From Candidatus Krumholzibacteriia bacterium (GTDB taxonomy: Bacteria; Krumholzibacteriota; Krumholzibacteriia; LZORAL124-64-63), in assembly GCA_036351155.1 (NCBI GenBank), contig JAZBOO010000280.1, positions 6,147 through 70,146 of the forward strand: 64,000 bases of DNA. The letters run 5' to 3'. The notes under the pieces were generated by a model. That model was not told the origin of the DNA. It searched no databases and saw only the letters and a program-made list of their open reading frames with translations. The position numbers were made by a program, and so were the translations under genes. Shown here piece by piece: positions 17,683-46,692 of the stretch. Numbering within the stretch: position 1 is the first letter of the stretch; each line of letters begins with the position of its first letter.

Positions 17683-17683
17683 C

Positions 17684-18304: not shown

Positions 18305-18434
18305 ACACAGTATATGTTAAATTCATGGGAGAGTATCCCGGTTTTTAACCGCAACATGCCGCGTTTCTGGTTGGGCTTCTCGTTCAAATTCCCTGTCACC
18401 CCAGGGAGGCCCTGGAATTATGGAGGACCGTGAG

Positions 18435-25609: not shown

Positions 25610-28600
25610 ATGACCTGGTTGGTCAGCCAGGCGGCACGCGCGCTGGGTATTCTCTGTCTGCTGGGGCAGGGATTTCTCGTTTATGCGGGCAGCACGGTGG
25701 GGCCTGAGCCGGGACTGGCTCTGCCCGGGCTGTTTCTGGCCCTGACCATCGTCCAGGCGGTGGTTTTTTCCCTGGAACTGCGAAAAAAGCTGACGAGCCT
25801 GGACGAAGCGGGGCGCCGTGCCCTGTTCCTGCCGAGTGTTTTTCTGACCGTGGCCATCGGAACCATGCTGGCCTGTGGGCTGGTGGTTCTGTCCCGGGGG
25901 ACCGGTGCGGGAGACTCATCCTGGAAAGATCCCGAAAGCTCTTCACCGGTGCTGGCCGAGGCACTGCTGGCCCTGGAACAGTATCCTGCCGCCTCGGCCG
26001 CTCTGCTCGATGGGGTCCGGGTGATGCGCGGCCAGCTGGAGAGCCAGCCCGTCAAGGGCGATTGGTTTCGATTGCTGGCCCCGTGGCCGGAGCAGTGGAG
26101 CCGCTATTTTCCTGCGGCGGATGCCTTGCCTGGCGATTTGCTGGTCCATCGTCGGGGCTCACCTCTGGCCTGGACCGAGGGTGCGGAGCCTCTGCCTCCC
26201 CCGCCTTCCCAGGACGTGCGTGCCCTGCCCGTGGACTTTCTGACCCAGCATGCGGGGACCTGGTACCTGCGCAGCTTCGTGATGCTGTCCTCGGAAACCC
26301 TGCTCGAATGGCAGGTGCCCCTGGAAGGACCTCAGCTGGCCCACCGCTGGCCGGGACTGGAACTGTCCGTGAGATCCCTCAACGAGGGCACTCTGACAGG
26401 GAAGGTGGCCCTGACCGACTCCGATCAGGCACGCCAGCTGGTCGCCCAGATGGAACCCGGCAGTGCCGACCAGGCGGCGAGCAAGGGCCGGGCACGTCTC
26501 ATGATCCTCTTGACCCTGGGGTGGCTGCTGGGGCTGACATCGTGGTTTCACATCCTGGCCGGACACGGAGTCTGGCTGGGCTCTCTCTGGGCGGGACGTG
26601 CGCTGCTGGCGGGCGTGGACTTCTTCCGCTGGTTTCCTCAGGCCTTCCCCGACCTCACCGCCCCGGCTCCTCCCGGCCATCCCATCAGCCTGGTGGGGCC
26701 TGCCTACTTTGCCACCCCCTTTGCCTCGGGGTGGTTCGCCTCCACGGCCGATGCCCTGCTGACCGCCCTGGTGGTGGGTCTGACGGCCTGGGCCCTTCTG
26801 CGCTCACGAGGCCTGGTGGGATGGACCGATGAGCTGGCGCGGGCCGGGAAAACCCGCCCTCTGCTGGGACAGGGTCTGGTGTCGGGGCTGGTGTTTGGAC
26901 TGGTGGGTGCGGGATTGCTCTGGCTCGCCCACCTCTTTGCAAGCCTGGTGGCCGACAATGCCAACCCGCGGCTGATCGGCCAGGGCGTCTCGGTGGGGTT
27001 TCTCTCCTTCTGGGGCCTCCATGTGGTGCTGATGGTGATCCCCTTCAGTCTGGCATCCCTGCTGGTGGGCTGGGCCGGCGACCGACCCTGGCCCGAGCGC
27101 ACCCGACTGGGCGGTTGGCTGGCCGCCGCTGGTTTGGGCGGACTGGTTTCGGGCGCGGTTTTCTTCTTCCTGCCGCGCGACTGGTGGTGGCAACCCGCGC
27201 TGGCCGGTCTGATCACGGCGACCTGGTGGCTGGTGGCTCCTGCCCTGCGTTCGCGCCCCCGCTTCTTGCGGCGGTTTGCCTGGCCCACGGTGATGCTGCT
27301 GGTGGTGGTCTGGAACTACGTGTCCCTGCGAGAAGTGTATGACCAGGCCGAGCGCAGCTGGCTGGTGAGCAAGGGCCACCTCATCACCAGCCCCGGGGAG
27401 GAGGGGACGCGCTTCCTCCTGGAAGATGCCATGCTGGGGATGCGGGAAACGGACCGCCTCAGTCCCTCGACGGGCGAGGGTGTGGGCATCTGGCGGGACC
27501 ATCCGGCCTACCTGCTGTGGGCGTCCTCGCCCTTGCGGGACCTGGGCTATGCCTGCTCGGTGGAGATCATCGACACCGAGTACGGTGCCACCCCGTTTTT
27601 TGCCACCGGGTTCATGCGCGATTCGGGTTATGAACTGCTCAGTCGCGGCAACTGGACCGACCGCGAAGGGGCTCCCGCCACCGACGACGAGCAACTGCAA
27701 TTCCAGACCGAACGCCGGGTCTATCCCGGGGGCGAAGAAGAGGTCCTGGTGGCCCGGATGGGCCGGGCCGGTGATCTGGGCTGGATCCGGGTGGAGTTGC
27801 CGGTGCGCAGCTGGCGGATCTCGACCCTGCTGGCCGACCTGCGCGATGAGGTCCCGGTGGACAGTGGTTACCGGCCCCGGGCGGAAGTGGATCGCCCCAT
27901 TCTTCTCTTGCGGGGGGACAACCAGGGGTGGCTGGGAACGGGAGATCCCGGTCTGAAGGGAGCACAGGCCAGTGGCCTCCTGACCGAGCTGAAGCAGGGA
28001 GTGCGTCCCTGGGCGGCGATCGAGCGAGACGATGGCACCTGGCTGTGTCGCTGGAACCCCCTGCCGGACAATCTGGCCCGGTCCCCGGGAGAAGGCTTCC
28101 TGCTGGGGCTGAGACGCGCGGGCCCGGTGGAAGACCTGCTGGATCTTTCGCGGATCATGCTGATCAATCTGGTGTTGCTGCTGGTCCTGTTTGGCCTGGT
28201 TCAGGGCACGGAGCGACTGCGCCTGGCGTTCCTGCCTGCGGGCGCGAATCGGCCGAACAGCCAGGGGCCCTGGCTGCCCGGGTTTCAGGAGCGGTTTCTG
28301 GCGGGCTATCTCATGCTCGGCCTCCTGTTGCTCCTGGTGGTGGGCATGTCGGTGGACCGGGTGGGTTATCAGCGGGTGCTGACCGAATCCAAGGAAAAAA
28401 CCCTGGATGGGCTGAACCAGGCCATTTCCCAGCTGCGCAGTCTGCTGGCCGAACAGGCCGGAGCCATGGCGGCCAGCGAGTACATCTCGGACCTGCTGGT
28501 GGGCGAAATGGCCGGGCAGCGTCCGGTGGGTCCTCCCAGTCGACGCCAGGCCATGGTCTTTGCGGGTGATGGCACGCTGGTACTGGACGAAACCCTCAGC

Positions 28601-30394
28601 AATCTGACCGATACCGAGGCGCGGGTGCTGCTCACCGCCGGCCGCAGTAACCCCTTGATCGTGATCAGAGATGACCAGCAGATCTACGTGGCCACCGTGA
28701 TTCCGGTGGATCTTTTCGCTCCGGTGGAAGGGGTGGCCGACGAGGACTCGCTGGTGCTGAACCCGGAACCTGGAGAAGGGTTCTTTCTCTACCGCCAGCA
28801 GCTGGATTCCGAGTTTCTGGGCAGCCTGGCCGACCTGGTGCGCGGTCAGGCCACCTTGTATCTGGAGGGGCAGCCCTATCTGGCCAGCCATCCGGGACCC
28901 GTCTTTGCGGGCCGAAAAAATTTGCTGACGGGACCGGATCTGATGGCCTCGTTGCTGGACCATCCCTGGGGTCCGGGGGTCTTTCCCCGTCCGGGGCGCA
29001 CCTTCGCCTTTTCCGGCAGTCAGCCCTTGCCCGTGTTTGCCCGGGACGAGCAAGGACGTCTGGTGCCCCAGCCCATCCCCGGGGTCATGTCCCTGGCCTT
29101 CCCGGATCGGGAGCAACAGTACAACCAGCAACGTCGCGAGACGGTCCTTTTCCTGGCGGGGCTGGCCAATCTCATCTTGCTGACGGCCCTGATGCTGGCC
29201 CTGGTCATGTCCTGGAACCTCTTCCGCCCGTTGCGGGTGCTTCTGACGGCGACCCGCCGTCTGGCCGACGAAGATTTTGATGCGCCTCTGCCTCCGGGCG
29301 GTCGGGATGAGGTGGGTCGACTGGCTCAGGCCTTCGGTTTGATGAGAGGTCAGCTCCGCACCGCCCGCGAAAAACTGGCGGCCCGGGAAAAGTTTCTGGC
29401 CGGTGTGCTGGACCAGGTGACGGTGGGTGTGGCGGTGGTGGACCGGCAGGGGCAGGTGGCAGCGCTGAACCCCGCCGGCCGGCATATCCTGACGGATTTT
29501 CAGCCCGAGATGGAAGAGCAGGCGGCCGTGCGCGGCCTGGTCGAGATTTTCCGGGACATGGCCGCGGGAAAGCCCACCTGGTCCGGTGAAATCCGCAGCG
29601 CCGATGGTCAGCATACCCTGCGGGGCGCCATGGCACCCCTGGATATTGCCGGGGGCGAGTCGGACACCATGCTGGTGTTCGAGGACATCACCGAGTTTCT
29701 GCAGACCAAGAAGATGGCCATCAACGCCGAGCTGGCGCGCCAGGTGGCCCATGAGATCAAGAACCCTCTGACTCCCATCCAGCTGTCGGTTCAGCTGCTG
29801 GACCAGGCCTGGCGAGATCAGCACCCGCGCCTGGATGCCATCGTACCCGAGACCGTGCAGAGGGTGCTGTCGCAGGTGGAACTGTTGCGGACCATCGCCT
29901 CGGAGTTCAGCCTGCTGGGGCAGCCCGGCGAGCTGGATCTAGTGGTTCTGGACCTGGCGCACCTGGTAGGTGAGGTGACCGATGCCTACCAGGGCGCCGG
30001 GGCTGTGGATTCCGATCATTTCCGGGTGGAAGTGGCCGATTGCCCCCACCCGCTGGTCCTGGGGGAACGGGATGCTCTGCGCAAGATCCTGGGTAATCTC
30101 ATGCAGAACAGCCTGGATGCCACGCGGCCCGAGGAGCCTCTGTCGGTGCAGGTGAGCTGGCGCATCCAGGCGGGCCGGCTGACGCTGGTCTGGGTGGACA
30201 ACGGCCAGGGTTTGCTGCCGGAGGTGGCTGATCGGCTGTTTGATCCCTATTTTTCCACCAAGAGCAAGGGCACCGGTCTGGGCCTGGCCATCTGCCGGAA
30301 CCTGGCCGACCGCATGGGAGGATCCATGACTCTGGCCAACCGACAGGATGCGCCGGGGGCCCAGGCCACCTTGACCTTGCCGCGCGCCAAGTGA
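25610..30394 (+). CDS. Giant (1594 aa) polytopic sensor histidine kinase: about 9-10 TM segments and large periplasmic regions, then HAMP-PAS-HisKA-HATPase (NtrY-like core)
   Basis: C-terminus has HEIKNPLTPIQLSVQLL (H-box), LGNLMQNSLDA (N-box) and GTGLGLAICRNLADRMGG (G2-box). A HAMP/PAS segment precedes it. Many hydrophobic helices in the first 560 aa and one more near residue 850. Confidence 0.85.
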   Translation: MTWLVSQAARALGILCLLGQGFLVYAGSTVGPEPGLALPGLFLALTIVQAVVFSLELRKKLTSLDEAGRRALFLPSVFLTVAIGTMLACGLVVLSRGTGAGDSSWKDPESSSPVLAEALLALEQYPAASAALLDGVRVMRGQLESQPVKGDWFRLLAPWPEQWSRYFPAADALPGDLLVHRRGSPLAWTEGAEPLPPPPSQDVRALPVDFLTQHAGTWYLRSFVMLSSETLLEWQVPLEGPQLAHRWPGLELSVRSLNEGTLTGKVALTDSDQARQLVAQMEPGSADQAASKGRARLMILLTLGWLLGLTSWFHILAGHGVWLGSLWAGRALLAGVDFFRWFPQAFPDLTAPAPPGHPISLVGPAYFATPFASGWFASTADALLTALVVGLTAWALLRSRGLVGWTDELARAGKTRPLLGQGLVSGLVFGLVGAGLLWLAHLFASLVADNANPRLIGQGVSVGFLSFWGLHVVLMVIPFSLASLLVGWAGDRPWPERTRLGGWLAAAGLGGLVSGAVFFFLPRDWWWQPALAGLITATWWLVAPALRSRPRFLRRFAWPTVMLLVVVWNYVSLREVYDQAERSWLVSKGHLITSPGEEGTRFLLEDAMLGMRETDRLSPSTGEGVGIWRDHPAYLLWASSPLRDLGYACSVEIIDTEYGATPFFATGFMRDSGYELLSRGNWTDREGAPATDDEQLQFQTERRVYPGGEEEVLVARMGRAGDLGWIRVELPVRSWRISTLLADLRDEVPVDSGYRPRAEVDRPILLLRGDNQGWLGTGDPGLKGAQASGLLTELKQGVRPWAAIERDDGTWLCRWNPLPDNLARSPGEGFLLGLRRAGPVEDLLDLSRIMLINLVLLLVLFGLVQGTERLRLAFLPAGANRPNSQGPWLPGFQERFLAGYLMLGLLLLLVVGMSVDRVGYQRVLTESKEKTLDGLNQAISQLRSLLAEQAGAMAASEYISDLLVGEMAGQRPVGPPSRRQAMVFAGDGTLVLDETLSNLTDTEARVLLTAGRSNPLIVIRDDQQIYVATVIPVDLFAPVEGVADEDSLVLNPEPGEGFFLYRQQLDSEFLGSLADLVRGQATLYLEGQPYLASHPGPVFAGRKNLLTGPDLMASLLDHPWGPGVFPRPGRTFAFSGSQPLPVFARDEQGRLVPQPIPGVMSLAFPDREQQYNQQRRETVLFLAGLANLILLTALMLALVMSWNLFRPLRVLLTATRRLADEDFDAPLPPGGRDEVGRLAQAFGLMRGQLRTAREKLAAREKFLAGVLDQVTVGVAVVDRQGQVAALNPAGRHILTDFQPEMEEQAAVRGLVEIFRDMAAGKPTWSGEIRSADGQHTLRGAMAPLDIAGGESDTMLVFEDITEFLQTKKMAINAELARQVAHEIKNPLTPIQLSVQLLDQAWRDQHPRLDAIVPETVQRVLSQVELLRTIASEFSLLGQPGELDLVVLDLAHLVGEVTDAYQGAGAVDSDHFRVEVADCPHPLVLGERDALRKILGNLMQNSLDATRPEEPLSVQVSWRIQAGRLTLVWVDNGQGLLPEVADRLFDPYFSTKSKGTGLGLAICRNLADRMGGSMTLANRQDAPGAQATLTLPRAK

Positions 30395-30446
30395 GCAGCC
30401 CCCGAGAGCATCCGGAAGGACGCCCATGACTTCGCACCTCAGGATC

Positions 30447-31127
30447 ATGACACGTGGCCGGCAGGTTTTCTCCCTGCTGGTCGTCCTGTTGATGGCCGGA
30501 GGCGGGGCAGTGCTGGCGCGTCAGTCCGACCAGGCCGAGGTGCGCATCGCCCGCCTGCATTACGATGGGGGCGGCGACTGGTACTGCGACCCGAGCAGTC
30601 TGCCCAACTGGCTGGAACAGTTCAGCCGACGTACGGGCATTGCCACGGCGGCCACCGAGGCGGTGGTTACCCTGGATAGCGAGGATCTGTATCAGTATCC
30701 CTTCCTCTACCTGAGTGGACACGGCCGCATTGATCTGAAGCAGGAAGATCTGAGCGAGCTGCGCCGGTATCTCGAGGCCGGCGGGTTTCTCTACGCCGAC
30801 GACAACTACGGGCTGGACCCCTCGTTCCGTCAGATGATCGCGCAGCTGTTTCCCGAGCGGGAGCTGGCACCCATCGGAGCCGATCATCCCATTTTCCGAG
30901 CCTTCTATCGGTTGCCGGGGGTGCCCAAGATCCATCAGCACGATGGGGAACCTGCCCAGGCTTTCGGCGTATCCCATGAGGGCCGTCTGGTGGTGTTCTG
31001 CACCTGGAGCGCGGACATCGGCGATGGACTGGAGGACGCGGACGTCCACGGCGATCCCCCGCATGTGCGGGAGGCGGCCACCCAGATGGCGGTCAACGTG
31101 TTGATGTATGCCCTGACTCATCCGTAA
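30447..31127 (+). CDS. DUF4159-like secreted protein (class I glutamine amidotransferase-like fold)
   Basis: Signal peptide, RLHYDGGGDWYCD and FLYLSGHG...GGFLYADDNYG blocks that I recall as the DUF4159 family. Family assignment is from memory, not a search. Confidence 0.55.
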   Translation: MTRGRQVFSLLVVLLMAGGGAVLARQSDQAEVRIARLHYDGGGDWYCDPSSLPNWLEQFSRRTGIATAATEAVVTLDSEDLYQYPFLYLSGHGRIDLKQEDLSELRRYLEAGGFLYADDNYGLDPSFRQMIAQLFPERELAPIGADHPIFRAFYRLPGVPKIHQHDGEPAQAFGVSHEGRLVVFCTWSADIGDGLEDADVHGDPPHVREAATQMAVNVLMYALTHP

Positions 31128-31135
31128 CAGAAAAA

Positions 31136-34100
31136 ATGGCACCCATGGATATCCGGCAGACATTCCAGGATCAGTTGTACAGCCTGCTGGGGCGCACCCG
31201 CCGGCGCATCCTGGTGCTGGGCCTGCTGCGGGTGCTGGCGGTTGCCGGGCCCATGACGGTGCTGGCGGTCTGGTCGCTGGGCACCGGTCCCGAGCCGGGC
31301 CCCGTACTGGCGGGCGGTCTGGTGTTTTCCCTGCTGGCTGCCTGGGTGGCTCTGGTCTGGACGCAGGTGGTTTGTCCCCTGTGGCGGTTGCGCCGCCCCG
31401 TGGATCTGGTGGACAGGGTCGAGAAGTTCGGCGACTTTGCCAATGTCCTGGTGGCGGGAGAGGAAGCCCTGCGGCAGCCGGAGCGCTGGGAGGCGGACAC
31501 CTCGGTGCGCCGCGAATTGCGAGACCGGGTGTTCCGGCAGGGTTTGCGCATCCTGGGTTTCTTGAGCCCCGAACGGGTTTTTCCGCACCGTCATCTGCGC
31601 GCTGGCCTGGTGGGCCTGGGCTTGCTGGGGACCGGCGTGCTGTTCATTGGCCTGGCCCAGCCGACCGTGGGCCGTCAGGGAATAGCGCGTCTGCTCCGCC
31701 CCATCCCGCCGGCGGCGGTGCCCCAGGTGGCGGGCATCTATCCCTGGGACACTCCTGACCATGTGGTGGCCGGCGAGGAAGTCCGGCTTTCCGTGCGGGA
31801 TTTCGGAGGCGGAAACGATCTGGCCGTCTGTGAGATCCGGGTGGGACAGGGCCTGTGGCAACCGCTGGAAGCCAGATCCGAAACCGTTCCCCGGGACCAG
31901 GCCTTCCTGCCGCCCCCCTTCAAGCTGTGGATGTCCCAGGTGGACAACGTGCGCGAGGATTTTTCCTGGCGTTTTCGGCGCGGGTCTCGGGTTTCTCCCG
32001 AGCAACGCGTCACGGTGCGGCACCATCCATTGCTGACCAACCTGGGCGTGACCATTCAGCCCCCCGAGTACACCGGTCTGGATGAGCAGGCCCTCGATCG
32101 GTTGCCCACCTGGCTGGAAGTTCCCACCGGTGCGGGCCTGGTCTTGCAGGGGACGGCGAATCACCCGCTGAGCGTGGCCGAGCTGGTGATCTCGGGGCAA
32201 GATGCCCAGGCCCTGGCCATCTCCGGTTCACGGGTGGAGGGCGCGCTGCGTATCGAGGATTCCCTGACCTTCCAGCTGGCCCTGCAGGACAGTTTCGGGC
32301 TGACCAATCTCTCCCCTCTGGTTTACGAAGTGCGGGCCATCCCCGATGAAAAGCCCCTGGTCCAGCTGGTGCGCCCAGGCGACGATGGGCTGCTGCCGCT
32401 GGATGGGATCCTGCCCCTGGGTCTGGATGCCACCGACGACTACGGACTGACCCGCCTGGAACTGCAGCTGCGCGTGGTGGATGGGCCCGAAGAAGGGGAA
32501 GGTGATACCGGCTGGACCATGGGAACCCACCGCATCTGGCAGGGGACGGGGCCTGCCGGCGGATCCTTCACGACAGCCTGGGGCACGGTGCGCCTGGACG
32601 CCCGGATGGCGGAAAATGACGGAGCCCCCCTGCGGGTGGAGATGCAGGTCGATGCGGATATCGCCGACCTGGATCTGGTGCCGGGCGATGTTCTGGAACT
32701 CAGGCTGGGTGCAGTGGACAACCGCCGTCCCGGCTCCGGGCAGATTTCCTACAGCCGGGCGCTACGGCTGGTTTTGCCCTCGGCGGCCGATGTCCTGGCC
32801 AATCAGGCGGAAGCCAATGAACAGCGGCGCGACGAGCTGGAGGAGGCGCGCCGGCGCGGGCTGGAACTGGGCCAGGATCTGGACCGTTTGAATCGCGAGC
32901 TCATGAAGAATCCTCTGCCCGACTGGGCGCGCCGCCAGGAGATGGAAGAGGCCATTGCCCGTCAGCAGCGTCTGCAGGAAGAGCTGTCCCGTCTGGCTGC
33001 CGAGTTGACCAGTGATCTGGATCGTATGGCGTCAGGGCAGATGACCAGCGAGCGGATGCTGGAAAAGGCCGAGGAAGTATCCTCCCTTCTGAACCAGGAT
33101 CCCGACCAGAGCTTGCAGGATCTTCTGGAGCGCATGAAACAGAGTGGCGAGGAGGCGGCTGCCGAGGAGATGGTCCGGGCCATCCGCGAGGTGGGGCAGG
33201 ACCAGAAGGACATGGCGCGGCGCCTGGATGCGGCTCTGGCCATGCTGAACCGCATGGAGCGGGAACAGGAGATGGAGGGCCTGACCGCCCTGCTGGAGCA
33301 GATGATCCGCAAGCAGCAGGAACTGGCCGATCTGAGCCGGGAACTGGCGGATCAGCAGGAGCAACAGGCGGGCGAAGGTCAGGACCAGGAGGCGGCCGGT
33401 GATCCGGACGCCGAATCGGGGGAACCGCAAGAAGGTGATCCGCAGCAAGGTGAACAGCAGGAAGGCGAACAGCAACCGGGAGACCAGCAACCGGGAGACC
33501 AGCAACCGGGAGACCAGCAACCGGGAGACCAGCAGTCCGGCGAACAGCAGGAAGGATCTCCCGAGGACACTCCCACCGCCGAGGAACTGGCCAGACGCCA
33601 GGAGGCCCTGGCCGAGGAGCTGGAGGAGCTGGAGGAAAGGCTGGAAAAAGCCCTGGCCGAATTGCAGGAGCAACAGCAACAGGACAACGGTCAGCAGTCG
33701 CCCGACAGCGAGAAGATGGAGCAGGCCCTGCAGGAAGCCCTGGAACAGCTGGAAAGCCAGAAGGAAAAGGGAGGCATGAAGAAGGCCTCCGAGCAGCTGT
33801 CCCAGATGGATCCCGAACAGGCGGCCAAGCTGCAGCAGGAAAGTCTGCGTGATCTGGGAGCGCTGTACCACGTGATCCTGGAAACGCAGCAGGCCATGCA
33901 GTCGGCCATGCAGCAAAATCAGGTGTCGTCCCTGCGGGGACTGGCCGCCGACATGCTGGCCCTTTCCACGCGCCAGGAGGAGATCTCCCTGGCCATCCCC
34001 TCGCAGCTGCGCGATGTGCGGTCCCTGGGACTGACCCGCAGTCAGCACCGACTGCAGCGGTCGGCCACCGGTGTGCGCGATCGCTTGAGCCTTCTGCTGG

Positions 34101-34924
34101 AAGAGTCTCCGGCCCGGATCATGCGCCTGCTGGCCAAGCTGGACGAGCTGATCGAGCAAATGGGGCACACCGTGCAGTCCATGGAGGACAACCGCGGCCC
34201 CGTGGCGCGGCGCGACGCGCTGGCCAGTCTGGCGTCGGCCAACCGGATCGTGATCGGGCTGTTGACCGAAGCGCAGATCACCAGTCAGAGCAGCAGCCCC
34301 GGCAGCAACGGGCAGCAGCAGAGCATGGCCCAGCAGCTGCAGCAGATGGCTCAGGAACAGGCCAAGCTCAACGGAATGACCGATCAGTTGCGGCAGATGC
34401 TGGCCAACCGCGGCATGAGCCAGGAAGCCCGCTCGCAGATGAAACGCCTGGGTGAGGCCCAGGGCAATCTGGCCGGACAGCTGCAGGAGCTGGAGGAGAA
34501 AGAACGGGAGAATGCCGAAGGTGAGCGCCTGCTGGGCGACCTGGGCGAGCTGGGTCGTCAGATGGAAAGCATCAGCGGGGAGATGGACGACGGCCTGGTC
34601 AGCGAGGAAACGCTGGTGAGGCAAGAGCGCATCCTGAGCCGGCTGCTGGATGCGCGCAACTCGGTGCGACGGCGGGACTACACCAGCCGCCGGGAAAGCC
34701 GGACCGCCGGTCAACTCTACACGGACATGCAAGGCCCGCTGGATGGCGATGACCCGGCCGCAGCAGAGCGCAGCTTCCGCCTGCGTTACCAGGCCCTGGA
34801 AAAGGCGCCGCTTGAATACCGTGATCTGGTGCGGCGCTACTTTGCGGCCCTGGACAGCTTGCGAGCCATGGATGGAGCAGATCTCTGGCCCGACCAGGCA
34901 GATCAGCGAAAGGAACTGCCATGA
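31136..34924 (+). CDS. Large (1262 aa) N-terminal double-TM envelope protein with beta-rich ectodomain, long coiled coils and an acidic Q/E/P/G/D repeat region (DUF4175-like)
   Basis: Two TM helices at residues 25-75, then about 350 aa of beta-rich sequence, then about 750 aa that are heptad-like and rich in E/Q/R/L/A. Contains (QPGDQ)4. Family assignment is tentative. Confidence 0.7.
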   Translation: MAPMDIRQTFQDQLYSLLGRTRRRILVLGLLRVLAVAGPMTVLAVWSLGTGPEPGPVLAGGLVFSLLAAWVALVWTQVVCPLWRLRRPVDLVDRVEKFGDFANVLVAGEEALRQPERWEADTSVRRELRDRVFRQGLRILGFLSPERVFPHRHLRAGLVGLGLLGTGVLFIGLAQPTVGRQGIARLLRPIPPAAVPQVAGIYPWDTPDHVVAGEEVRLSVRDFGGGNDLAVCEIRVGQGLWQPLEARSETVPRDQAFLPPPFKLWMSQVDNVREDFSWRFRRGSRVSPEQRVTVRHHPLLTNLGVTIQPPEYTGLDEQALDRLPTWLEVPTGAGLVLQGTANHPLSVAELVISGQDAQALAISGSRVEGALRIEDSLTFQLALQDSFGLTNLSPLVYEVRAIPDEKPLVQLVRPGDDGLLPLDGILPLGLDATDDYGLTRLELQLRVVDGPEEGEGDTGWTMGTHRIWQGTGPAGGSFTTAWGTVRLDARMAENDGAPLRVEMQVDADIADLDLVPGDVLELRLGAVDNRRPGSGQISYSRALRLVLPSAADVLANQAEANEQRRDELEEARRRGLELGQDLDRLNRELMKNPLPDWARRQEMEEAIARQQRLQEELSRLAAELTSDLDRMASGQMTSERMLEKAEEVSSLLNQDPDQSLQDLLERMKQSGEEAAAEEMVRAIREVGQDQKDMARRLDAALAMLNRMEREQEMEGLTALLEQMIRKQQELADLSRELADQQEQQAGEGQDQEAAGDPDAESGEPQEGDPQQGEQQEGEQQPGDQQPGDQQPGDQQPGDQQSGEQQEGSPEDTPTAEELARRQEALAEELEELEERLEKALAELQEQQQQDNGQQSPDSEKMEQALQEALEQLESQKEKGGMKKASEQLSQMDPEQAAKLQQESLRDLGALYHVILETQQAMQSAMQQNQVSSLRGLAADMLALSTRQEEISLAIPSQLRDVRSLGLTRSQHRLQRSATGVRDRLSLLLEESPARIMRLLAKLDELIEQMGHTVQSMEDNRGPVARRDALASLASANRIVIGLLTEAQITSQSSSPGSNGQQQSMAQQLQQMAQEQAKLNGMTDQLRQMLANRGMSQEARSQMKRLGEAQGNLAGQLQELEEKERENAEGERLLGDLGELGRQMESISGEMDDGLVSEETLVRQERILSRLLDARNSVRRRDYTSRRESRTAGQLYTDMQGPLDGDDPAAAERSFRLRYQALEKAPLEYRDLVRRYFAALDSLRAMDGADLWPDQADQRKELP
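33473..33532 (+). repeat. Perfect tandem repeat 4 x 15 bp (CAACCGGGAGACCAG), flanked by degenerate copies, inside the CDS; encodes (QPGDQ)n
   Basis: Read directly from the sequence. The flanks GAACAGCAGGAAGGCGAACAG and CAGTCCGGCGAACAG are diverged units. Confidence 0.9.
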
Positions 34925-36867
34925 GCAAGAGCCTGCTGATCATTCTTGTCCTGGGTGCCGTCATCCTGGGGGCATCACCCGCACCGGCGCAGGAGCAACA
35001 GGGGCCCCGTCTGGTCCCACCGCGAGCGCAGCGGGGTGTGGTGCAGTCCGGACAGCAGCTGGCGGATCTGCGTCGCCGCGTCCTGGAGCTCGACCGCCTG
35101 ATCGGGCTGGGCAGTGTGGCCCGAGCCGAATCGCTGCTGGAAGACCTTGCGCAACACAGTCTGCTGAAGGACGAGCTGGTCAGCCGCCGCATCAAGCTGG
35201 CGCAGCTCCGCGACGACCATCGCCAGGCGGTGGATCTGAGCCGGGAGGCGGTCATCTCCCAGCCGCTGAATGCGGCCCTCTGGCGTTCGTTGACCAGCTC
35301 ACTGCTGGCGGTGGCCGAGCCCGACAGTGCCCGCGAGGCGGCCGGCATGTTCATCGCCACCAGCCCCAATGCCCGCAGTGCCGGAATGGTGGCGGTGGAA
35401 CTGTTCCAGATGGCGCAGCGGCCCCGGGTCAGCCTGGGGTTGATCGACTCGCTGCGGATCTCGCTGGCCGAGCCCCGGTATCTGGGCCGTCAGCGGGCGG
35501 TGTGCCTGCTGCAGCTGGGCGAACCCGAGGAGTCGGCCGATGAGGTGGTGGCCGAGCTCAGGTACAACCCCTTCAACATTTCCCTGCTGCGCACCGATTT
35601 GCTGGAAGAGGCCTACCAGCCGGGAAGGCACCAGGATTTTCTGGACCGCTTGAAGAATCGCGCTGCGGAATCCGGGAGCCGGACGGCCGAGTCGGTTCTG
35701 CTGGCCAACCTGTACCTGGCCGATGGACAGGCGGAGCCGGCCCTGGAGGCCATCGCCTCAAGCTTTGACACGCGCAGCTCCCAGATCACCGTGCTGCAGA
35801 ACGGGGTGTCCCTGTCCCAGGAGCTGGAACTGCTGGAAGATCCCAGGCAGCGGCACGCCACGGTGGAGTACCTGCTGGACACCATGGCCCGTATGTGTGG
35901 CCCGGTGAATCCCGATCAGGGCCTGCGTCTGCGGGCGGCCGACCATCTGGCCCGGGTCTGTGAACAGGGGCTGGAAATGGGGGCGCTGGGGGGCGATCCA
36001 CGACAGGCCGTGGAGCGCTACGGCGAGTATCTGCAGCTGGTCCGGAAGGTGCACCCGGCCAGTCAGTATCTGTACTCCTCGCAGATCAAGCTGGCCGCCT
36101 ACACCCGTGATGAACTGCGCAAGCCCCGCCAGGCAGCGGGACGGCTGGAACGCATGCTCATGGATCTGGATCTGCCCACCGAGGGCGTGGCGCTGGTGCG
36201 CCTGACTCTGGGCGAGTGCTACCTGGCCGCCGGGGACACCGCGCGCGGGCGTACGGTGCTGACCCAGCTGGGGCGCGACCCCGAGTTCCGTGAAGCGGCG
36301 GGCCATGCTCATTTCCACCTGGCCCGGCTGGACCTGGCCGAGGGCCATTTCGCCACGGCCCGCGATCGTTTCGCCGTGGCGGCCATGGACAATCCCGCCG
36401 CCCCCTACGCCAACGATTCCCTGGAGCTGGGGCTGGCCATTGCCGAGGAGATGGACAATCCTTCCGGCGGCCCGGCCATCCTTCAGCTTTACGGGCAAAG
36501 CGTCTATTTCGATCTGACGCGCCGGCCGGAAGACCATCTGGCTGCACTGGAACATTTCGTGGCCCAGGCCGATCTGCGACTGGATCCTGACGACAAGCAG
36601 CACCTGCTGGAACGAGGGCGCAGGGAACTGGCCGAGGCCTACCAGGAGGCCGGGCGCTTGGAGGACGCGCTGGCCCAGTGGAACGCCATCGTTTTGAATC
36701 ACCCCGATGGGCGGCACCCCGCCCTGGCCCTGCTTTCTCGTGCCCAGCTGTTCGCCAGGACCGGGCGCCCCGAAGAATCCCGACAGGCCATGGAGCAGCT
36801 GCTGGCCCAGTACCCCGACTACCTGTTCGTCGAGGATGTGCGCGACGAGCTGAGGAATTTGCCATGA
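34921..36867 (+). CDS. Secreted TPR-repeat protein
   Basis: Signal peptide MSKSLLIILVLGAVILGASPAPAQ, then repeated amphipathic helix pairs rich in A/L/R/E with an all-helical TPR-like periodicity. ATGA overlap with the upstream stop. Confidence 0.7.
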   Translation: MSKSLLIILVLGAVILGASPAPAQEQQGPRLVPPRAQRGVVQSGQQLADLRRRVLELDRLIGLGSVARAESLLEDLAQHSLLKDELVSRRIKLAQLRDDHRQAVDLSREAVISQPLNAALWRSLTSSLLAVAEPDSAREAAGMFIATSPNARSAGMVAVELFQMAQRPRVSLGLIDSLRISLAEPRYLGRQRAVCLLQLGEPEESADEVVAELRYNPFNISLLRTDLLEEAYQPGRHQDFLDRLKNRAAESGSRTAESVLLANLYLADGQAEPALEAIASSFDTRSSQITVLQNGVSLSQELELLEDPRQRHATVEYLLDTMARMCGPVNPDQGLRLRAADHLARVCEQGLEMGALGGDPRQAVERYGEYLQLVRKVHPASQYLYSSQIKLAAYTRDELRKPRQAAGRLERMLMDLDLPTEGVALVRLTLGECYLAAGDTARGRTVLTQLGRDPEFREAAGHAHFHLARLDLAEGHFATARDRFAVAAMDNPAAPYANDSLELGLAIAEEMDNPSGGPAILQLYGQSVYFDLTRRPEDHLAALEHFVAQADLRLDPDDKQHLLERGRRELAEAYQEAGRLEDALAQWNAIVLNHPDGRHPALALLSRAQLFARTGRPEESRQAMEQLLAQYPDYLFVEDVRDELRNLP

Positions 36868-38135
36868 CCCGATTGCGATGGACCTTGCTGATTGCCGTGT
36901 TGTTGACCCTGGGCGGGTCGGGCGCAGCCCGGGCCCAGAGGTACCTGCTGGTGCCCATGGACCTGACCCAGAACAACCACCTGCGGGCGTACGGGCACGC
37001 CTTCCACACACTGCAGGCGGGGGACAAGGTCAACTGGCTGTTGAACTATCGCGGGGGCAGTTTTTTGATGGACGACACCCAGCGCGCCCGTCTCGATGCC
37101 CGCCTGCTGGGGGTGCGCTTCGAGGAGGTGGGCGAGGCGGATGTGGCCGCTATCCGGCAAATCGTCCAGCAGGAAAACATGGACGAGGTGCTGCTGGAAA
37201 CGCCGCCCCGCATTGCCGTGTACAGTCCGCCCAGCAAGCAACCCTGGGACGATGCGGTGACCCTGGCCCTGACCTATGCCGAGGTGCCCTACGATGTGAT
37301 CTACGACGAGGACATCATGGCCGGCCGCCTGGGTGACTACGACTGGCTGCACCTGCACCACGAGGATTTTTCGGGGCAGTACGGGAAGTTCTATGCCAGC
37401 TTCGGCTACGAGCCCTGGTACCTGGAACAGAAGCACCAGAGCGAGGAGATGGCGACCCGTCTGGGCTTCGACACGGTGTGGGAGCTGAAGCACGCGGTGG
37501 CCCAGACCATCCAGCAGTACGTGGACCAGGGCGGGTTCCTGTTCGCCATGTGCTCGGCCACCGACACCATCGAAATTGCTCTGGCCTGGCTGCACACCGA
37601 CATCGTGTCCGAACCCTTCGACAACACGCCCTATGACCTGGATTATCGCCGCAAGGTGGACTTCGAACAGACGTTCGGCCTGACCGATTTCAAGCTCGTG
37701 ACCAATCCGATGATGTATGAATTTTCGGATATCGACTCGAGCAACTACGCCCAGATGCGCGGCGCCGAGGCCGACTACTTCACCCTGTTCGCCTTTGCCG
37801 CCAAGTACGACCCGGTGCCGGCCATGCTTACCCAGAACCACGTCAACGTGATCAACGGATTTCTGGGACAAACCACCGGGTACTTCAAGAAGCACCTGAA
37901 GCGCTCGGTGATCGTTCTGGCTGCGGTGGAGGGCACGGACGAGGTCAAGTATATCCATGGCAAGCGGGGCATGGGCACCTGGACCTTTCTGGGCGGGCAC
38001 GACCCCGAAGATTACCAGCACCGGGTGGGTGATCCCCCCACCGATCTGGACCTGTATCCCACCAGCCCGGGATACCGTCTGATCCTCAACAATGTCCTTT
38101 TCCCGGCCGCCAAGAAGAAGCCGCAGAAGACTTGA
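36864..38135 (+). CDS. Secreted class I glutamine amidotransferase-like (ThuA/DUF4159-related) protein
   Basis: ATG overlaps the TPR gene stop (ATGA). Signal peptide MTRLRWTLLIAVLLTLGGSGAARA. DYDWLHLHHEDFSG...GGFLFAMCSATD resembles the GATase1-like core also seen in the 30447 protein. The ORF-track start at 36678 is an upstream artefact. Confidence 0.55.
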   Translation: MTRLRWTLLIAVLLTLGGSGAARAQRYLLVPMDLTQNNHLRAYGHAFHTLQAGDKVNWLLNYRGGSFLMDDTQRARLDARLLGVRFEEVGEADVAAIRQIVQQENMDEVLLETPPRIAVYSPPSKQPWDDAVTLALTYAEVPYDVIYDEDIMAGRLGDYDWLHLHHEDFSGQYGKFYASFGYEPWYLEQKHQSEEMATRLGFDTVWELKHAVAQTIQQYVDQGGFLFAMCSATDTIEIALAWLHTDIVSEPFDNTPYDLDYRRKVDFEQTFGLTDFKLVTNPMMYEFSDIDSSNYAQMRGAEADYFTLFAFAAKYDPVPAMLTQNHVNVINGFLGQTTGYFKKHLKRSVIVLAAVEGTDEVKYIHGKRGMGTWTFLGGHDPEDYQHRVGDPPTDLDLYPTSPGYRLILNNVLFPAAKKKPQKT

Positions 38136-38277
38136 TATTGTTGCCCGAGTTGGCCTTCTGGACATCGAGGATCAGTTTTCCTTGCTAACCTCTTGTAATC
38201 TGATAGGATTTACGGGTGATCCCATTCCGGATGGGACTGACCTGCCCCCTGAACAGGACGATCAAAGAGGAGGAAGC

Positions 38278-38463
38278 ATGGAGTACCCGAGTTGCAAGAA
38301 GTGCCAGGACGGGGTGCTGTTGCCTCTGAGTGATTACGGCCGTGATGGAGCGCCCATCCGCTTCAAGGCCTGGGTGTGCCACAACCCCGATTGCGGTTTC
38401 AGCATCCGCATCGACAACGGGGAAATCAGCCACGGCAAGGAATTGCGCCCCTCGGTGAAATAG
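38278..38463 (+). CDS. 61-aa zinc-ribbon mini-protein (CxxC...CxxxxC)
   Basis: Strong RBS GAGGAGGAAG precedes ATG 38278. MEYPSCKKCQDG...WVCHNPDCGF gives four Cys in two pairs. Confidence 0.6.
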   Translation: MEYPSCKKCQDGVLLPLSDYGRDGAPIRFKAWVCHNPDCGFSIRIDNGEISHGKELRPSVK

Positions 38464-38495: not shown

Positions 38496-39347
38496 TCACA
38501 AGGTGTGGCCGTCATCTTCCCGGGTTTGCGCCGCCATGCGGGCTTCCCACAGGAATTTTCCCACCGCCACCATCACCAGGAGAGACACAGCTGCCCAGAT
38601 GAATGTGCTCAGCTGCCAGGGCTGAGGCACCATATCGCGGGGCCCTTGCCGGACCATCAACACCAGCGAAATCCCGTTATGGATGGCGTGGCACAGCCAG
38701 CAGGCGGTCAACGACCGGGTGGCCTCCCAGACGAAGGCCAGGACCACGCCCACCCCGATCAGGCCGAACAGGATCCAGGCTTCCCCGTGCAGGATTCCGA
38801 AGACCAGTGAGGAAACTGCCGTGCCGGCCAGCGGGCCCCAGACGCTCGAGGCCAGGCGGTGCAACAGGCCGCGGAAGATGATCTCCTCGGCCAGGGGCGC
38901 CACCACCACCAGAGCCAGGAAGGCCAGGGCCAGTTCCAGGGGGCCCTCGGGCAGGTGGTCGTTCATGAAGGCGACCGATTCGGGGTGAGCCGGGGTCAGG
39001 CGCAGGGAGAGCTCGGCCAGGATGGAGGTGGGCACCAGCCCGGCCACCGCCAGCAGGCCGGTGGCGCCGAGGATGGTCCAGGGGGGCAGGTCCAGGGCAA
39101 AATCCCGCACCAGTTGCAGCTTGCGCAGACGCGCCACCGCCAGCAGAGGCAGGAACACCCCCAGCACCGCTCCGCCGAGGACGGGAATGGCCAGCCCGCC
39201 GAAGGTGCTGAACGCGGCAAACTGTCCGAAGAAATTCCCCGTCAAGACCAGGAAAAACAGGCCCAGGATCTCGGTCCGGGACCAGGATACCCACAGCCCG
39301 GCGGGGATGTCGCTGTCGGTCAAGCGGTTGTCACGGTTTTCGTTCAT
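38496..39347 (-). CDS. CPBP-family intramembrane metalloprotease (CAAX protease / Abi-like)
   Basis: EEIIFRG, FGILHG and HAIHN motifs within multiple TM helices. The start may instead be the upstream ATG at 39458. Confidence 0.75.
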   Translation of the reverse strand: MNENRDNRLTDSDIPAGLWVSWSRTEILGLFFLVLTGNFFGQFAAFSTFGGLAIPVLGGAVLGVFLPLLAVARLRKLQLVRDFALDLPPWTILGATGLLAVAGLVPTSILAELSLRLTPAHPESVAFMNDHLPEGPLELALAFLALVVVAPLAEEIIFRGLLHRLASSVWGPLAGTAVSSLVFGILHGEAWILFGLIGVGVVLAFVWEATRSLTACWLCHAIHNGISLVLMVRQGPRDMVPQPWQLSTFIWAAVSLLVMVAVGKFLWEARMAAQTREDDGHTL

Positions 39348-39480
39348 GGGACCAAGGTCGCTTGAAAACGGAGGTGGGGCAACCCATGTTTTCGGGCGAA
39401 CGGGTCGGACCATTTCTCCGACCATGGGGCCCGCAATGATCCGTGCATTGCCGGGCAAAAATGGTTAGACTGGTTTCCTC

Positions 39481-43032: not shown

Positions 43033-44031
43033 ATGTCAGGAAACGCACGCATCCTGGTCGCGGATGACGAGCCGCATATCCGTCGCATTCTGCAGTTTCT
43101 GCTGGAGAATGAGGGGTTTGAGGTCTATCTGGCCGAAGACGGCAGTCAGGCCTGGGAAGCGGTGCGTTCATTTCAGCCGGATCTGGTCCTCCTGGATGTG
43201 ATGATGCCACGGATGGATGGTTTTGCAGTACTGGACGAGATTCGTGCCGGTTACGAAACCGCCACCCTGCCGGTGATCATGTTGACGGCCAAGGGCGAAT
43301 CGGTGGACAAGGTGCGGGGCCTCAAGGGTGGGGCCAACGACTACGTCATCAAGCCCTTCAATCACGATGAATTGTTGTTGCGGGTGGGAAACCTGCTGGA
43401 AGTGACCCGGCGCGAGCGCGAGGCCAATCCCCTGACGGGTCTCCCCGGAAACCGTTCCATCGAGCGGGAAACCCTGAGGCGCATCAGCTCGAAGGATCCT
43501 TTCGGGTTCATGTACATCGATATCGATCGATTCAAGAGTTTCAACGACTACTATGGCTATTCCCGGGGCGACCACGCCATCAGCTATCTGGCGGGAGTGC
43601 TGGTCAGCTGTTCCCGTCGGTTCGGCACCGGAGACGATTTCGTGGGCCACGTGGGAGGCGACGACTTCGTCCTGATCACCTCCAGCACCAAGGCGGAGGC
43701 GCTGGCGCGCAAGATCATCGAGGAATTCGACGAGGGTATTGCCGGCCTGCACGACGTGGAGGACTACCGGCGGGGGTACCTGGAGGTGGAAAGCCGAGCG
43801 GGGGAAGTGGAGCAGTTCCCCTTGATCACCCTGACGGTGGCTCTGGTGAACAATGCCGAGGGCCGGTTCCGTCATCCCGCCGAGATCAGCGACACCATGG
43901 TGGAGCTGAAGAAGTACGGCAAGACCATGGCCAGCAGTGTCCTGGTCAGGGAGCGCCGGAATCGCCAGGGTGAAGAGGAGTTCGTGGCCACGGGTGTGAA
44001 AACGCGTGGAGAGGGACCCGATCATGAATAG
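43033..44031 (+). CDS. Response regulator with receiver domain plus GGDEF-type domain carrying a variant GGDDF motif
   Basis: ILVADDE...LLDVMMP...KPF receiver. GGDEF-domain blocks TGLPGNR, DIDRFKSFND and GHVGGDDFVLI. Confidence 0.85.
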   Translation: MSGNARILVADDEPHIRRILQFLLENEGFEVYLAEDGSQAWEAVRSFQPDLVLLDVMMPRMDGFAVLDEIRAGYETATLPVIMLTAKGESVDKVRGLKGGANDYVIKPFNHDELLLRVGNLLEVTRREREANPLTGLPGNRSIERETLRRISSKDPFGFMYIDIDRFKSFNDYYGYSRGDHAISYLAGVLVSCSRRFGTGDDFVGHVGGDDFVLITSSTKAEALARKIIEEFDEGIAGLHDVEDYRRGYLEVESRAGEVEQFPLITLTVALVNNAEGRFRHPAEISDTMVELKKYGKTMASSVLVRERRNRQGEEEFVATGVKTRGEGPDHE

Positions 44032-46285: not shown

Positions 46286-46296
46286 AAGAGGTTGTC

Positions 46297-46686: not shown

Positions 46687-46692
46687 CCAGGG

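Follow-up and report, generated by a model that had tools for sequence, protein, structure and literature searches.

Bat operons combine MoxR, DUF58, vWA and TPR genes and have been linked to stress tolerance (PMC11834572). The Bacteroides aerotolerance (Bat) operon and the locus analysed here, from the same broad bacterial group, are both multi-gene envelope operons with TPR proteins and membrane-anchored proteins that have large extracytoplasmic parts. The MoxR, DUF58 and vWA (BatA/BatB) genes that define the Bat operon are absent from our locus, and the TPR protein common to both (g3 here) is a generic feature and not diagnostic. To our knowledge, the classical Bat operon does not include DUF4159, DUF4175 or the g4 protein described below, and searches of Pfam and NCBIfam gave no match here to BatD or to the BatA N-terminal domain. 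On plasmid 1 of Gemmatirosa kalamazoonensis, DUF4159 and DUF4175 genes flank genes for a MoxR-like ATPase (E = 3e-78 against PDB entry 2r44), a DUF58-like protein and a double-TM vWA protein. The Gemmatirosa cluster and our module share two families: DUF4159, as an exported protein, and DUF4175, as a protein of ~1,200–1,300 residues with the same three-segment membrane anchor. In both, all components are predicted envelope proteins. The MoxR, DUF58-like and vWA genes of that cluster are lacking in the module and in 87 related loci, whereas the module has a TPR protein of 650 residues and g4, a highly conserved protein with no counterpart at the Gemmatirosa locus. Pfam scans of the open reading frames of the 64-kb window (the whole stretch of DNA analysed) gave no MoxR, DUF58 or vWA domain. 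Likewise, phmmer, with the Gemmatirosa MoxR as the MoxR query, gave no MoxR, DUF58-like or BatA-like homologue within ~10 kb in the window and the 87 related loci (1.37 Mb). The likeness to a Bat-type operon without MoxR, drawn in the first-pass annotation, is thus apt. Literature searches returned no experiment or publication on any of the components g1–g5; in full-text searches DUF4159 appeared in the Pfam database paper alone and DUF4175 nowhere.

The coordinates of the genes and of the features within them are given in Table 1. The cluster had been described as five consecutive same-strand genes with overlapping or abutting ends. All five lie on the forward strand, and the ATGA stop/start overlaps at 34921 (g2/g3) and 36864 (g3/g4) are present in the sequence; g5, however, does not abut g4, from which it is separated by 142 nt, and has an AGGAGG ribosome-binding site of its own. 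The spacing of g1 and g2 is 8 nt. The open reading frame of g1 runs from 30426, the start given previously (30447) being its second in-frame ATG. The sensor kinase gene, correctly placed directly in front of the cluster, ends 31 nt upstream of g1. The 4-nt overlaps of g2/g3 and g3/g4 were also seen at distant orthologous loci, and g1–g4 are therefore a single operon with extracytoplasmic or membrane products.

Table 1. Positions in the window of the genes and of the features within their products.
Feature	Position	Strand	Basis or remark
Histidine kinase gene (upstream neighbour)	25610..30394	+	1594 aa
g1, DUF4159 gene	30426..31127	+	233 aa; alternative start 30447
g2, DUF4175 gene	31136..34924	+	1262 aa
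g2 predicted TM segments, together	31208..31657	+	Kyte-Doolittle scan
g2 predicted TM segment 1 (aa 25-47)	31208-31276	+	Kyte-Doolittle scan
g2 predicted TM segment 2 (aa 57-80)	31304-31375	+	Kyte-Doolittle scan
g2 predicted TM segment 3 (aa 156-174)	31601-31657	+	Kyte-Doolittle scan
g2 perfect tandem repeat, 15-bp x 4.3 (QQPGD units)	33470..33534	+	Tandem Repeats Finder, 100% matches
g3, TPR gene	34921..36867	+	648 aa
g4, GATase1-like gene	36864..38135	+	423 aa
g4 motif H163-L-H-H-E-D-F-x-G-Q-x-G-K-F	37350..37391	+	columns of alignments A1, A2, A3
g4 Cys230 codon (FAMCSA)	37551..37553	+	conservation and model secondary structure
g4 motif G-G-H379-D-P-E382-D-Y-Q-H	37992..38021	+	conservation and model secondary structure
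g5, Cys-protein gene	38278..38463	+	61 aa

The family assignments made earlier for g1 and g2 stood up to profile searches. g1 matches Pfam DUF4159 (PF13709) well above the gathering threshold (E = 4.2e-59, 199.9 bits, cut-off 25.9) over HMM positions 1–202 of 202, and has a solved relative in PDB entry 4i66 (E = 6.6e-16). Its hydropathy predicts an N-terminal hydrophobic signal at residues 13–31, in agreement with its description as a secreted protein. g1 belongs to the GATase1-like family without the Cys nucleophile, with conserved Asp-Asp and His-Glu-His motifs in place; D125-D126 is invariant in the columns of alignment A4, and by motif comparison its position matches that of the Cys motif of g4. 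The median identity of g1 across phyla is 46%. g2 matches DUF4175 (PF13779) at residues 303–585 (E = 2e-12, 46.4 bits, cut-off 27.3). The window protein covers only HMM positions 186–429 of 825, and the orthologues at loci L085 and L086 cover positions 163–760 (E = 1e-19). No match of g2 to TIGR02226 or BatA_N was obtained in NCBIfam and Pfam.

The length of g2 was as described, but instead of the two N-terminal TM helices claimed previously three hydrophobic segments were found. The third, ~100 residues past the second, is shared by the majority of 40 orthologues. From the positive-inside rule the N-terminus is predicted to lie inside, which would make the large C-terminal part periplasmic. 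The segments are followed by a mixed beta and Pro/Gly-rich region (residues ~180–540), and in the C-terminal ~700 residues helix-forming residues are abundant and Gln and Glu enriched, as judged from composition, hydropathy and the conservation profile. A basic motif, RQERILSRLLDA...EYxxLVRRYFxAL, is conserved at the C-terminus, and the cross-phylum identity of g2 is only 23%. The QQPGD repeat lies within an acidic, Gln-rich, lineage-specific insert (residues ~740–860) that is missing in 86% of the orthologues. TIGR02302 describes proteins in which an N-terminal anchor of two to three helices precedes a long C-terminal region of low complexity outside the cytoplasm; the predicted topology of g2, with three conserved hydrophobic segments and a helix-forming, Gln/Glu-rich tail, fits that description.

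For g3, matches to TPR_6, TPR_14, TPR_19 and TPR_2 in Pfam and a signal-like hydrophobic segment at residues 5–23 agree with its earlier reading as a secreted TPR protein. It has diverged beyond the reach of BLAST (<26% identity across phyla) and was detected by an iterated profile search upstream of g4 in at least 50 loci. g3 is likely to be an exported scaffold protein.

g4 begins with a hydrophobic export signal, a cleavable-looking signal peptide, and consists of a small N-terminal alpha/beta domain and a class-I GATase-like domain. It matches no Pfam or NCBIfam model, DUF4159 included. The structure model has the GATase1/ThuA-like, flavodoxin-like alpha/beta fold of GATase1, ThuA and DJ-1, and on this fold the call of a second secreted GATase1-like protein holds. 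Comparison of the g4 alignment (A3) with the DUF4159 alignment (A4) in hhalign aligned 15 columns at the GGFLFA strand with a probability of 31%. Cys230 lies between strand 225–229 and helix 231–241 of the model, the nucleophile-elbow position of GATase1. It is nearly invariant (≥90%) among 141 sequences and is retained in six divergent long variants, five of them with a Pfam-detected type IX tail. H379, D380, P381 and E382 are invariant in the 141 sequences, and their motif directly follows strand 371–376 of the model; H379 and E382 probably occupy the His/Glu position of the 'HPE' motif of triad GATases. The H163 motif, (nearly) invariant family-wide, comes after strand 161–165 and, by the model, would sit at the position of the GATase1 oxyanion-hole loop. 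The triad class-I GATases and gamma-glutamyl hydrolases (HisH, PdxT, PurQ, PabA, peptidase C26) likewise have a strand–Cys–helix and a late strand followed by His-x-x-Glu. These enzymes are cytoplasmic, whereas g4 is exported and without a partner synthase domain; their motif is HPE and that of g4 HDPE, and no sequence-profile similarity was detectable, hhalign giving no alignment of g4 with HisH.

A scan of ten long g4 relatives gave the type IX secretion C-terminal domain in six, which places the work of the family outside the cytoplasm. The window protein has no C-terminal Por_Secre_tail sorting domain and ends in a conserved ...FPAAKKKPQKT. Across phyla g4 is 58% identical, on a par with the essential enzyme TsaD. 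g4 is an unstudied, mis-named, enzyme-like protein conserved at the level of an essential housekeeping gene. Its exceptional conservation, the retained Cys/His/Glu motifs and its solitary, housekeeping-type occurrence had gone unremarked in the first-pass annotation.

From operon structure, protein families, fold, export signals, conservation and recurrence we infer, as our best reading and with somewhat less than even confidence, a periplasmic complex that lacks MoxR and keeps a thiol amidohydrolase in position; its proposed elements are the physical complex, its topology, its catalysis and its substrate. The g1–g4 operon would encode an extracytoplasmic (periplasmic) protein assembly in which g2 would be a three-helix inner-membrane anchor sending ~1,080 residues into the periplasm as a beta-rich and then a long helical region, g3 a periplasmic TPR scaffold, and g1 and g4 two exported GATase1-like proteins. 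With a nucleophile-elbow Cys and a His/Glu pair in the canonical place, beside a His/Asp/Glu-rich loop, g4 would be the working enzyme, a thiol-dependent amidohydrolase or transamidase of the gamma-glutamyl or amide type, possibly metal-assisted, and may act on a conserved constituent of the envelope. g2 and g3, which evolve fast, would keep g4 and g1 at the membrane. The assembly would be related to the Bat-type (MoxR/DUF58/vWA) clusters with DUF4159 and DUF4175 genes in other bacteria, but independent of MoxR. An enzyme with adaptable scaffolds fits the unequal cross-phylum identities (g4 58%, g1 46%, g2 23%, g3 <26%). Alternatively, the numerous His, Asp and Glu residues that are invariant in g4 could form a metal centre with quite different chemistry.

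The same residues bear on a rather unlikely alternative, in which g1–g4 are the periplasmic half of a Bat/MoxR-type system whose MoxR, DUF58 and vWA genes lie elsewhere in the genome and act in trans, for example in module assembly or cofactor loading. MoxR ATPases are cofactor-insertion and maturation chaperones, and in Gemmatirosa the DUF4159 and DUF4175 genes stand beside MoxR-like, DUF58-like and vWA genes; the Gemmatirosa MoxR locus, however, has no g4. The described composition of Bat operons, MoxR, DUF58 and vWA with TPR (PMC11834572), speaks for such a partnership, and the phmmer result for the window and the 87 related loci, within ~10 kb, and the Pfam results for the 64-kb window, both negative for MoxR, DUF58 and vWA or BatA relatives, speak against it. 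For MoxR systems, which typically form operons, it would be unusual to act in trans consistently in many phyla.

We consider it improbable that g1 and g4 lack catalytic activity and are ThuA/GIFT-type modules for binding or scaffolding, serving glycan or surface-polymer handling or supporting a surface machine (type IX secretion, gliding). The closest structural neighbours of g4 are the GH42 middle domain, ThuA-like proteins, 3rht, 2gk3, IFT52 and OST48, presumably for the most part non-catalytic modules. The best matches include glycan-associated GATase-like modules (the GH42 domain, lacto-N-biose phosphorylase, a beta-1,2-glucosyltransferase and the deacetylases Agd3 and PelA), and matches were also obtained to IFT52 and OST48/WBP1, which contain GIFT domains. 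Identity to g4 is 10–15% in the ThuA-like or 'GATase1-like' group (PDB entries 4jqs, 1t0b, 4e5v, 3rht and 2gk3; GH42 middle domain) and the GIFT domains (IFT52, OST48/WBP1, GldG). g4 differs from this group in that it has no Pfam ThuA or GATase match, adds an N-terminal alpha/beta domain of ~90 residues and long insertions, and keeps Cys/His/Glu motifs at the predicted triad positions. We know of no such Cys/His-x-x-Glu residues in non-catalytic ThuA and GH42M modules, and the (nearly) invariant nucleophile-elbow Cys and His-x-x-Glu are what is expected of an enzyme. An identity of 58% across phyla is, moreover, far above that usual for binding modules. The distribution of the g4 family tracks the FCB group, a user of type IX secretion, some g4 relatives are type IX cargo, and a type IX cargo protease is encoded in the window; yet no glycosyltransferase, polysaccharide-export or type IX component gene was linked to the module at the loci examined.

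Carried further, the thiol-enzyme reading would make g4 the founder of a hitherto unmodelled family: extracytoplasmic thiol enzymes of housekeeping grade, perhaps metal-dependent, spread across the FCB phyla. Together with DUF4159, DUF4175 and TPR proteins they would form a MoxR-independent envelope machine processing a conserved envelope component. We put this forward as a possibility more doubtful than the complex itself. Such a machine might act on gamma-glutamyl or amide linkages of the cell wall or of a surface protein. If true, FCB-group bacteria would have a core process not yet described, and the g4 module is a concrete candidate for a core envelope function in environmental and host-associated bacteria that together form a very large group. 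Clusters with and without MoxR, DUF58 and vWA genes offer a natural comparison that could help to explain Bat/MoxR envelope systems. Since g4 is carried by cultured organisms (Nonlabens, Croceibacter, Mesonia, Aequorivita and Caldithrix abyssi), genetics and biochemistry are feasible.

The complete order g1–g2–g3–g4 was found in 38 of the 80 species-representative genomes that hold g4, and a further 12 loci, cut by contig ends, are consistent with it. The full-order loci span Krumholzibacteriota, Marinimicrobia/Fidelibacterota, Eisenbacteria, KSB1, others and unlabelled lineages; the flanks differ among phyla, those of L085 and L086 being unrelated. DUF4159 and DUF4175, catalogued but unstudied families, are thus newly placed, alongside a TPR protein and g4, in a fixed operon of four genes in the Bacteroidetes-related phyla surveyed (FCB group). 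At 19 loci (Flavobacteriia, Cloacimonadota, WOR-3, Zixibacteria, Latescibacteria) g4 occurs without g1–g3 nearby and so is not strictly dependent on them in cis. In Krumholzibacteria-like genomes synteny extends over all 20 kb between the kinase and TsaD, both included, and local synteny therefore proves little. Despite this and the solitary g4 genes, inherited synteny without functional meaning, of five unrelated envelope genes in one lineage, is very improbable, as order, spacing and overlaps of g1–g4 are kept in Marinimicrobia/Fidelibacterota, Eisenbacteria, KSB1 and unlabelled lineages with wholly different flanks, and protein identities of 23–58% disfavour one recently transferred island.

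This census refutes chance synteny for g1–g4; it does hold for the kinase and g5, and the recurrent module proposed earlier, five genes plus kinase, is reduced to g1–g4. g5, whose motif is CxxC...CxxxxC and not CxxC...CxxC as first read, was present in only 12 of 82 loci. Elsewhere it stays beside the downstream HAD/Nnr genes, 2–8 kb from g4 in L004, L006, L018 and L029, and it is an adjacent lineage-specific gene outside the conserved module. The histidine kinase has ~12 hydrophobic segments in its N-terminal 1200 residues, followed by HAMP, PAS, HisKA and HATPase domains (Pfam, hydropathy). Only Krumholzibacteria-like loci and L015, L027 and L030 have its sensor region upstream of g1, and the upstream genes in other phyla are unrelated to it. 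The kinase is a lineage-specific upstream neighbour outside the core module, possibly co-transcribed with it here. PADLOC anti-phage defence models gave no matches to g1–g5.

Many g4-family records in NCBI, nr and UniRef are named 'asparagine synthetase B', an identity with practically no chance of being right and refuted by the domain and fold tests: the name alone is common to the two, since g4 matches no asparagine synthase or class-II amidotransferase model in Pfam or NCBIfam, has a signal peptide where AsnB has its N-terminal catalytic Cys at position 2, shows a class-I GATase-like and not an Ntn fold, and has type IX-secreted family members. A propagated mis-annotation of g4 is thereby corrected.

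The kinase gene is followed by genes for a DUF4159 protein (g1), a DUF4175 membrane protein (g2), a TPR protein (g3), a GATase1-like protein (g4) and a small Cys protein (g5). All five + strand ORFs listed in the first-pass annotation are present in the sequence, as are both of the ATGA overlaps that it had claimed (at 34921 and 36864). The gap between g1 and g2 is 8 nt; 142 nt separate g4 from g5, which has its own AGGAGG site. Scans of the window found no MoxR, DUF58 or vWA gene, as had also been stated. The promoter/terminator scan gave counts no different from those of shuffled sequence, PADLOC returned no matches and NCBIfam returned none for g1, g2, g4 or g5. The G+C content of the window is ~64%, and the rest of it is chromosomal DNA of an ordinary housekeeping kind (Mfd, SurA-like proteins, FtsEX, DNA polymerase III delta', KsgA, SecDF, HAD, Nnr, TsaD, PriA and the 2-oxoglutarate dehydrogenase complex). 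The kinase is an unusually large polytopic sensor, with ~12 hydrophobic segments across its first 1,200 residues followed by HAMP-PAS-HisKA-HATPase, and has no adjoining response regulator.

Features of the module and its surroundings (window coordinates)
Feature	Position	Strand	Description
Predicted ORFs	15322-19061 and 25004-25606	+	786, 206, 213 and 200 aa; no Pfam match
Histidine kinase	25610-30394	+	1594 aa; stop 31 nt before g1
g1	30426-31127	+	233 aa; second in-frame ATG at 30447
g2	31136-34924	+	1262 aa
Tandem repeat	33470-33534		In g2 insert; perfect 15-bp x 4.3; QQPGD units
g3	34921-36867	+	648 aa
g4	36864-38135	+	423 aa
g4 C-terminus	38103-38132		...LFPAA-K/R-K-K-x-x-K-T
g5	38278-38463	+	61 aa
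Rce1-like gene	38496-39458	-	CAAX protease family membrane protein, between g5 and HAD gene
Signalling cluster	43033-49347	+	Three genes, as follows
Response regulator-GGDEF	43033-44031	+	Fusion
Kinase-HD_5	44006-46285	+	HisKA/HATPase fused to HD_5 (HD-GYP-type)
Kinase-HD_5	46693-49347	+	As preceding, also with GAF
Peptidase	51966-55172	+	1068 aa; papain-family C1 peptidase, right-handed beta-helix, C-terminal FlgD_ig/Por_Secre_tail

Neighbourhoods were compared across 80 species-representative genome loci with g4, using iterated profile searches of their ORFs. The full g1-g2-g3-g4 order with constant spacing was found in 38 loci (37 scored automatically, plus locus L070, in which g3 and g4 share one stop-to-stop frame). 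A further 12 loci were consistent with this order and cut by contig ends, two had g3-g4 only, 19 had g4 with no g3 upstream and nine were too short to judge. Krumholzibacteriota, Marinimicrobia/Fidelibacterota, Eisenbacteria, KSB1 and UBP1 all have loci with the full module, as do unlabelled lineages and MAGs that bear the labels Fibrobacteraceae and Deferribacteres. In two additional loci, L085 and L086 (the latter from Fidelibacterota), these four genes overlap at start and stop in the same way but have wholly different flanks. Chance synteny of g1-g4 is excluded. Of the recurrent module that had been suggested, g1-g4 stand, and the kinase and g5 fall outside it: apart from three other loci, the kinase sensor region is upstream in Krumholzibacteria-like ones only, and g5 is found in only 12 loci, in some of them 2-8 kb from g4, so that the conserved unit is g1-g4. 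HAD/Nnr lies just downstream of g5 in all but one locus for which enough downstream sequence was retrieved; an Rce1-like gene intervenes in Krumholzibacteria-like loci, and it is kept at that position in those genomes only. Solitary g4 sits among housekeeping genes: seven Flavobacteriia-type loci have DnaB, Cloacimonadota have signal peptidase I with a HemN-like gene, WOR-3 has one gene of the amino-acid-kinase family and one that is ARMT1-like, and other loci have BirA, RecO, or DnaX and Mfd. Directly downstream of g4 there is a YjbQ-family gene (132-133 aa) in two short contigs with a Caldithrix abyssi-named g4 (L083 and L084), on a 1.27-Mb metagenome contig (L085) and in Fidelibacterota (L086). 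L085 has an extra 80-aa ORF between g3 and g4.

A tblastn search using the DUF4175 part of g2 as the query identified a locus on plasmid 1 of Gemmatirosa kalamazoonensis. Its genes encode, in order, a double-TM vWA protein, a DUF4159 domain, an AAA+ ATPase similar to 2r44 (E 3e-78), which we take to be a MoxR-family structure, a 358-aa protein that carries a DxSxS motif and in size and position is like DUF58, another double-TM protein with DxSxS, and a 1,298-aa DUF4175 protein anchored by three segments in the same way as g2. In other bacteria DUF4159 and DUF4175 are presumably part of MoxR/DUF58/vWA clusters, of which this locus is one tested example. The Gemmatirosa MoxR, DUF58-like and BatA-like queries found no homologue in the window and 87 related loci (1.37 Mb). 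The Gemmatirosa locus, in turn, is without g4. The window module is thus a variant lacking MoxR, with DUF4159 and DUF4175 joined by a TPR protein and g4. MoxR partners might instead act on the module in trans; the Gemmatirosa cluster has such genes beside DUF4159 and DUF4175, the searched loci have none, and we consider this unlikely. Bat operons combine MoxR, DUF58, vWA and TPR genes and are linked to stress tolerance (PMC11834572). The Bat-like comparison made in the first-pass annotation was borne out, as the Gemmatirosa cluster holds DUF4159 and DUF4175 beside a MoxR-like ATPase and a vWA gene. Literature searches found 'DUF4159' in the Pfam database paper alone and gave nothing useful for 'DUF4175' or the TIGR names. 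A DUF4159 gene 41% identical to g1 lies at 11965-12582 of Corynebacterium crudilactis plasmid pCRULAC1 (L088), adjoining a dihydrofolate reductase gene in a mosaic antibiotic-resistance island with IS26/IS6 elements and aminoglycoside/sulfonamide resistance genes. Neither this gene nor a stand-alone Gemmatirosa DUF4159 gene offered a functional context.

The family assignments proposed for g1-g3 held in profile searches. g1 matches DUF4159 over its full length (E 4e-59) and has a solved relative (PDB entry 4i66). g2 scores above the Pfam threshold for DUF4175, but only over residues 303-585; orthologues from other phyla cover most of the model (E 1e-19). The N-terminal hydrophobic anchor described for g2 is present, with three hydrophobic segments rather than two helices; the third, ~100 residues past the second, is retained in most of 40 orthologues. 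Given an N-terminus inside the cell, the remaining ~1,080 residues would therefore be periplasmic. Residues ~180-540 are of mixed beta/Pro-Gly-rich composition, and 55-78% of residues in 541-1260 are helix-forming. An acidic/Gln-rich insert is lineage-specific and missing from most orthologues; its QQPGD repeat is likely to be a hypervariable spacer. A PDB sequence search with g2 gave noise only. g3, whose N-terminus is signal-like, is a TPR protein. g5 had been described as CxxC...CxxC; its motif is in fact CxxC...CxxxxC, and it has no family match.

The interest lies in g4, a housekeeping-grade, mis-annotated and unmodelled exported family in many Bacteroidetes-related phyla. The database proteins that match g4 number more than 8,000, a lower bound, and it has no sequence match in Pfam, NCBIfam or the PDB. 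Sources that name the family call it 'asparagine synthetase B', which is a wrong database name; literature on that name with Flavobacterium, gliding or type IX secretion held nothing attributable to the family, and neither a gene from a Bizionia transcriptome (its annotation is of real asparagine synthetase activity) nor a Tannerella glycosylation cluster could be tied to it. The nearest named relatives are from Candidatus Krumholzibacteriota (~81% identity). The family also occurs in Marinimicrobia/Fidelibacterota, Eisenbacteria, KSB1, Calditrichaeota (including Caldithrix abyssi, whose g4 sequence was located only on 3-kb contigs), Cloacimonadota, Zixibacteria, Latescibacteria, WOR-3, Ignavibacteria, Bacteroidota and MAGs labelled Fibrobacteraceae; Nonlabens, Croceibacter, Mesonia and Aequorivita are among its cultured carriers. 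Family members are 52-61% identical to the window g4. Among 1.84 billion proteins clustered at 50% identity there are about twenty full-length representatives, and this search returned the family itself and fragments, with no distant annotated relatives; the variants with type IX tails came to light through it. No homologue was found among 72,556 plasmids. Judged by sequence identity, g4 is conserved to the same degree as TsaD (80 versus 82% in Krumholzibacteria, 68 versus 70% in the next group). Median identities across phyla are 58% (g4), 46% (g1) and 23% (g2); for g3, BLAST found a match in only one of 23 loci, at 26%. Unusually for the end of a protein, the g4 C-terminus is near-invariant across phyla; it may be a signal for retention, interaction or sorting.

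A first AlphaFold model of g4, built from 20 close homologues (pLDDT 55 overall and under 50 in the C-terminal half), was replaced by one from a 141-sequence alignment assembled from three homologue searches (pLDDT 81.4, pTM 0.83). At the fold level this model supports the earlier 'GATase1-like' label, and Foldseek agrees. Residues conserved family-wide are PWDDAV, DWLHLHHEDFxGQxGKF, FAMC230SA and GGH379DPE382. In the model, FAMC230SA lies between strand 225-229 and helix 231-241, and GGH379DPE382 comes after strand 371-376; by position, C230 would be the nucleophile elbow and H379/E382 the His/Glu pair of triad amidotransferases. Using hhalign, g4 gave no alignment with T. maritima HisH and only 15 columns with DUF4159, at the strand before the elbow; the arguments for homology and the triad therefore draw on fold and motif position. 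g1 has an invariant Asp-Asp where, by motif comparison, the g4 Cys would lie, and so would lack a Cys nucleophile. A type IX secretion C-terminal domain is present in six of ten longer g4 family members, from which it follows that the family works outside the cytoplasm; among the longer variants with sequences read, the Cys motif is kept in 6/6 and GHDPE in 5/6. In six divergent relatives of 497-534 aa (P0361, P0363, P0369, P0370, P0372 and P0382) the sorting domain replaces the ...KKxxKT C-terminus, which implies putative surface or secreted versions.

The reading that we favour, while rating it somewhat short of probable, is a periplasmic g1-g4 assembly with g4 as a thiol amidohydrolase or transamidase, for which we infer the complex, the catalysis and the substrate. 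The four proteins probably make up this assembly; the fast-evolving g2 and g3 would be its membrane anchor and scaffold, and the slowly evolving g1 and especially g4 would do the specific work. The retained Cys/His/Glu motifs suggest the enzymatic role; the bonds typically attacked by enzymes with this fold (class-I amidotransferases, peptidase C26) are those of glutamine or gamma-glutamyl amides. A metal site in g4 is possible, given its many invariant His, Asp and Glu residues. Less probable again than partners in trans is a reading in which g4 and g1 have no catalytic role and are binding modules of the ThuA/GIFT type for a glycan or surface machine; the motifs retained in g4 run counter to it.

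Elsewhere in the window, the 51966-55172 product resembles, by its domains, a protease that is cargo of type IX secretion, which makes it probable that the organism has such a system. The GGDEF/HD_5 signalling arrangement of the window recurs in the related genomes L001 and L002.
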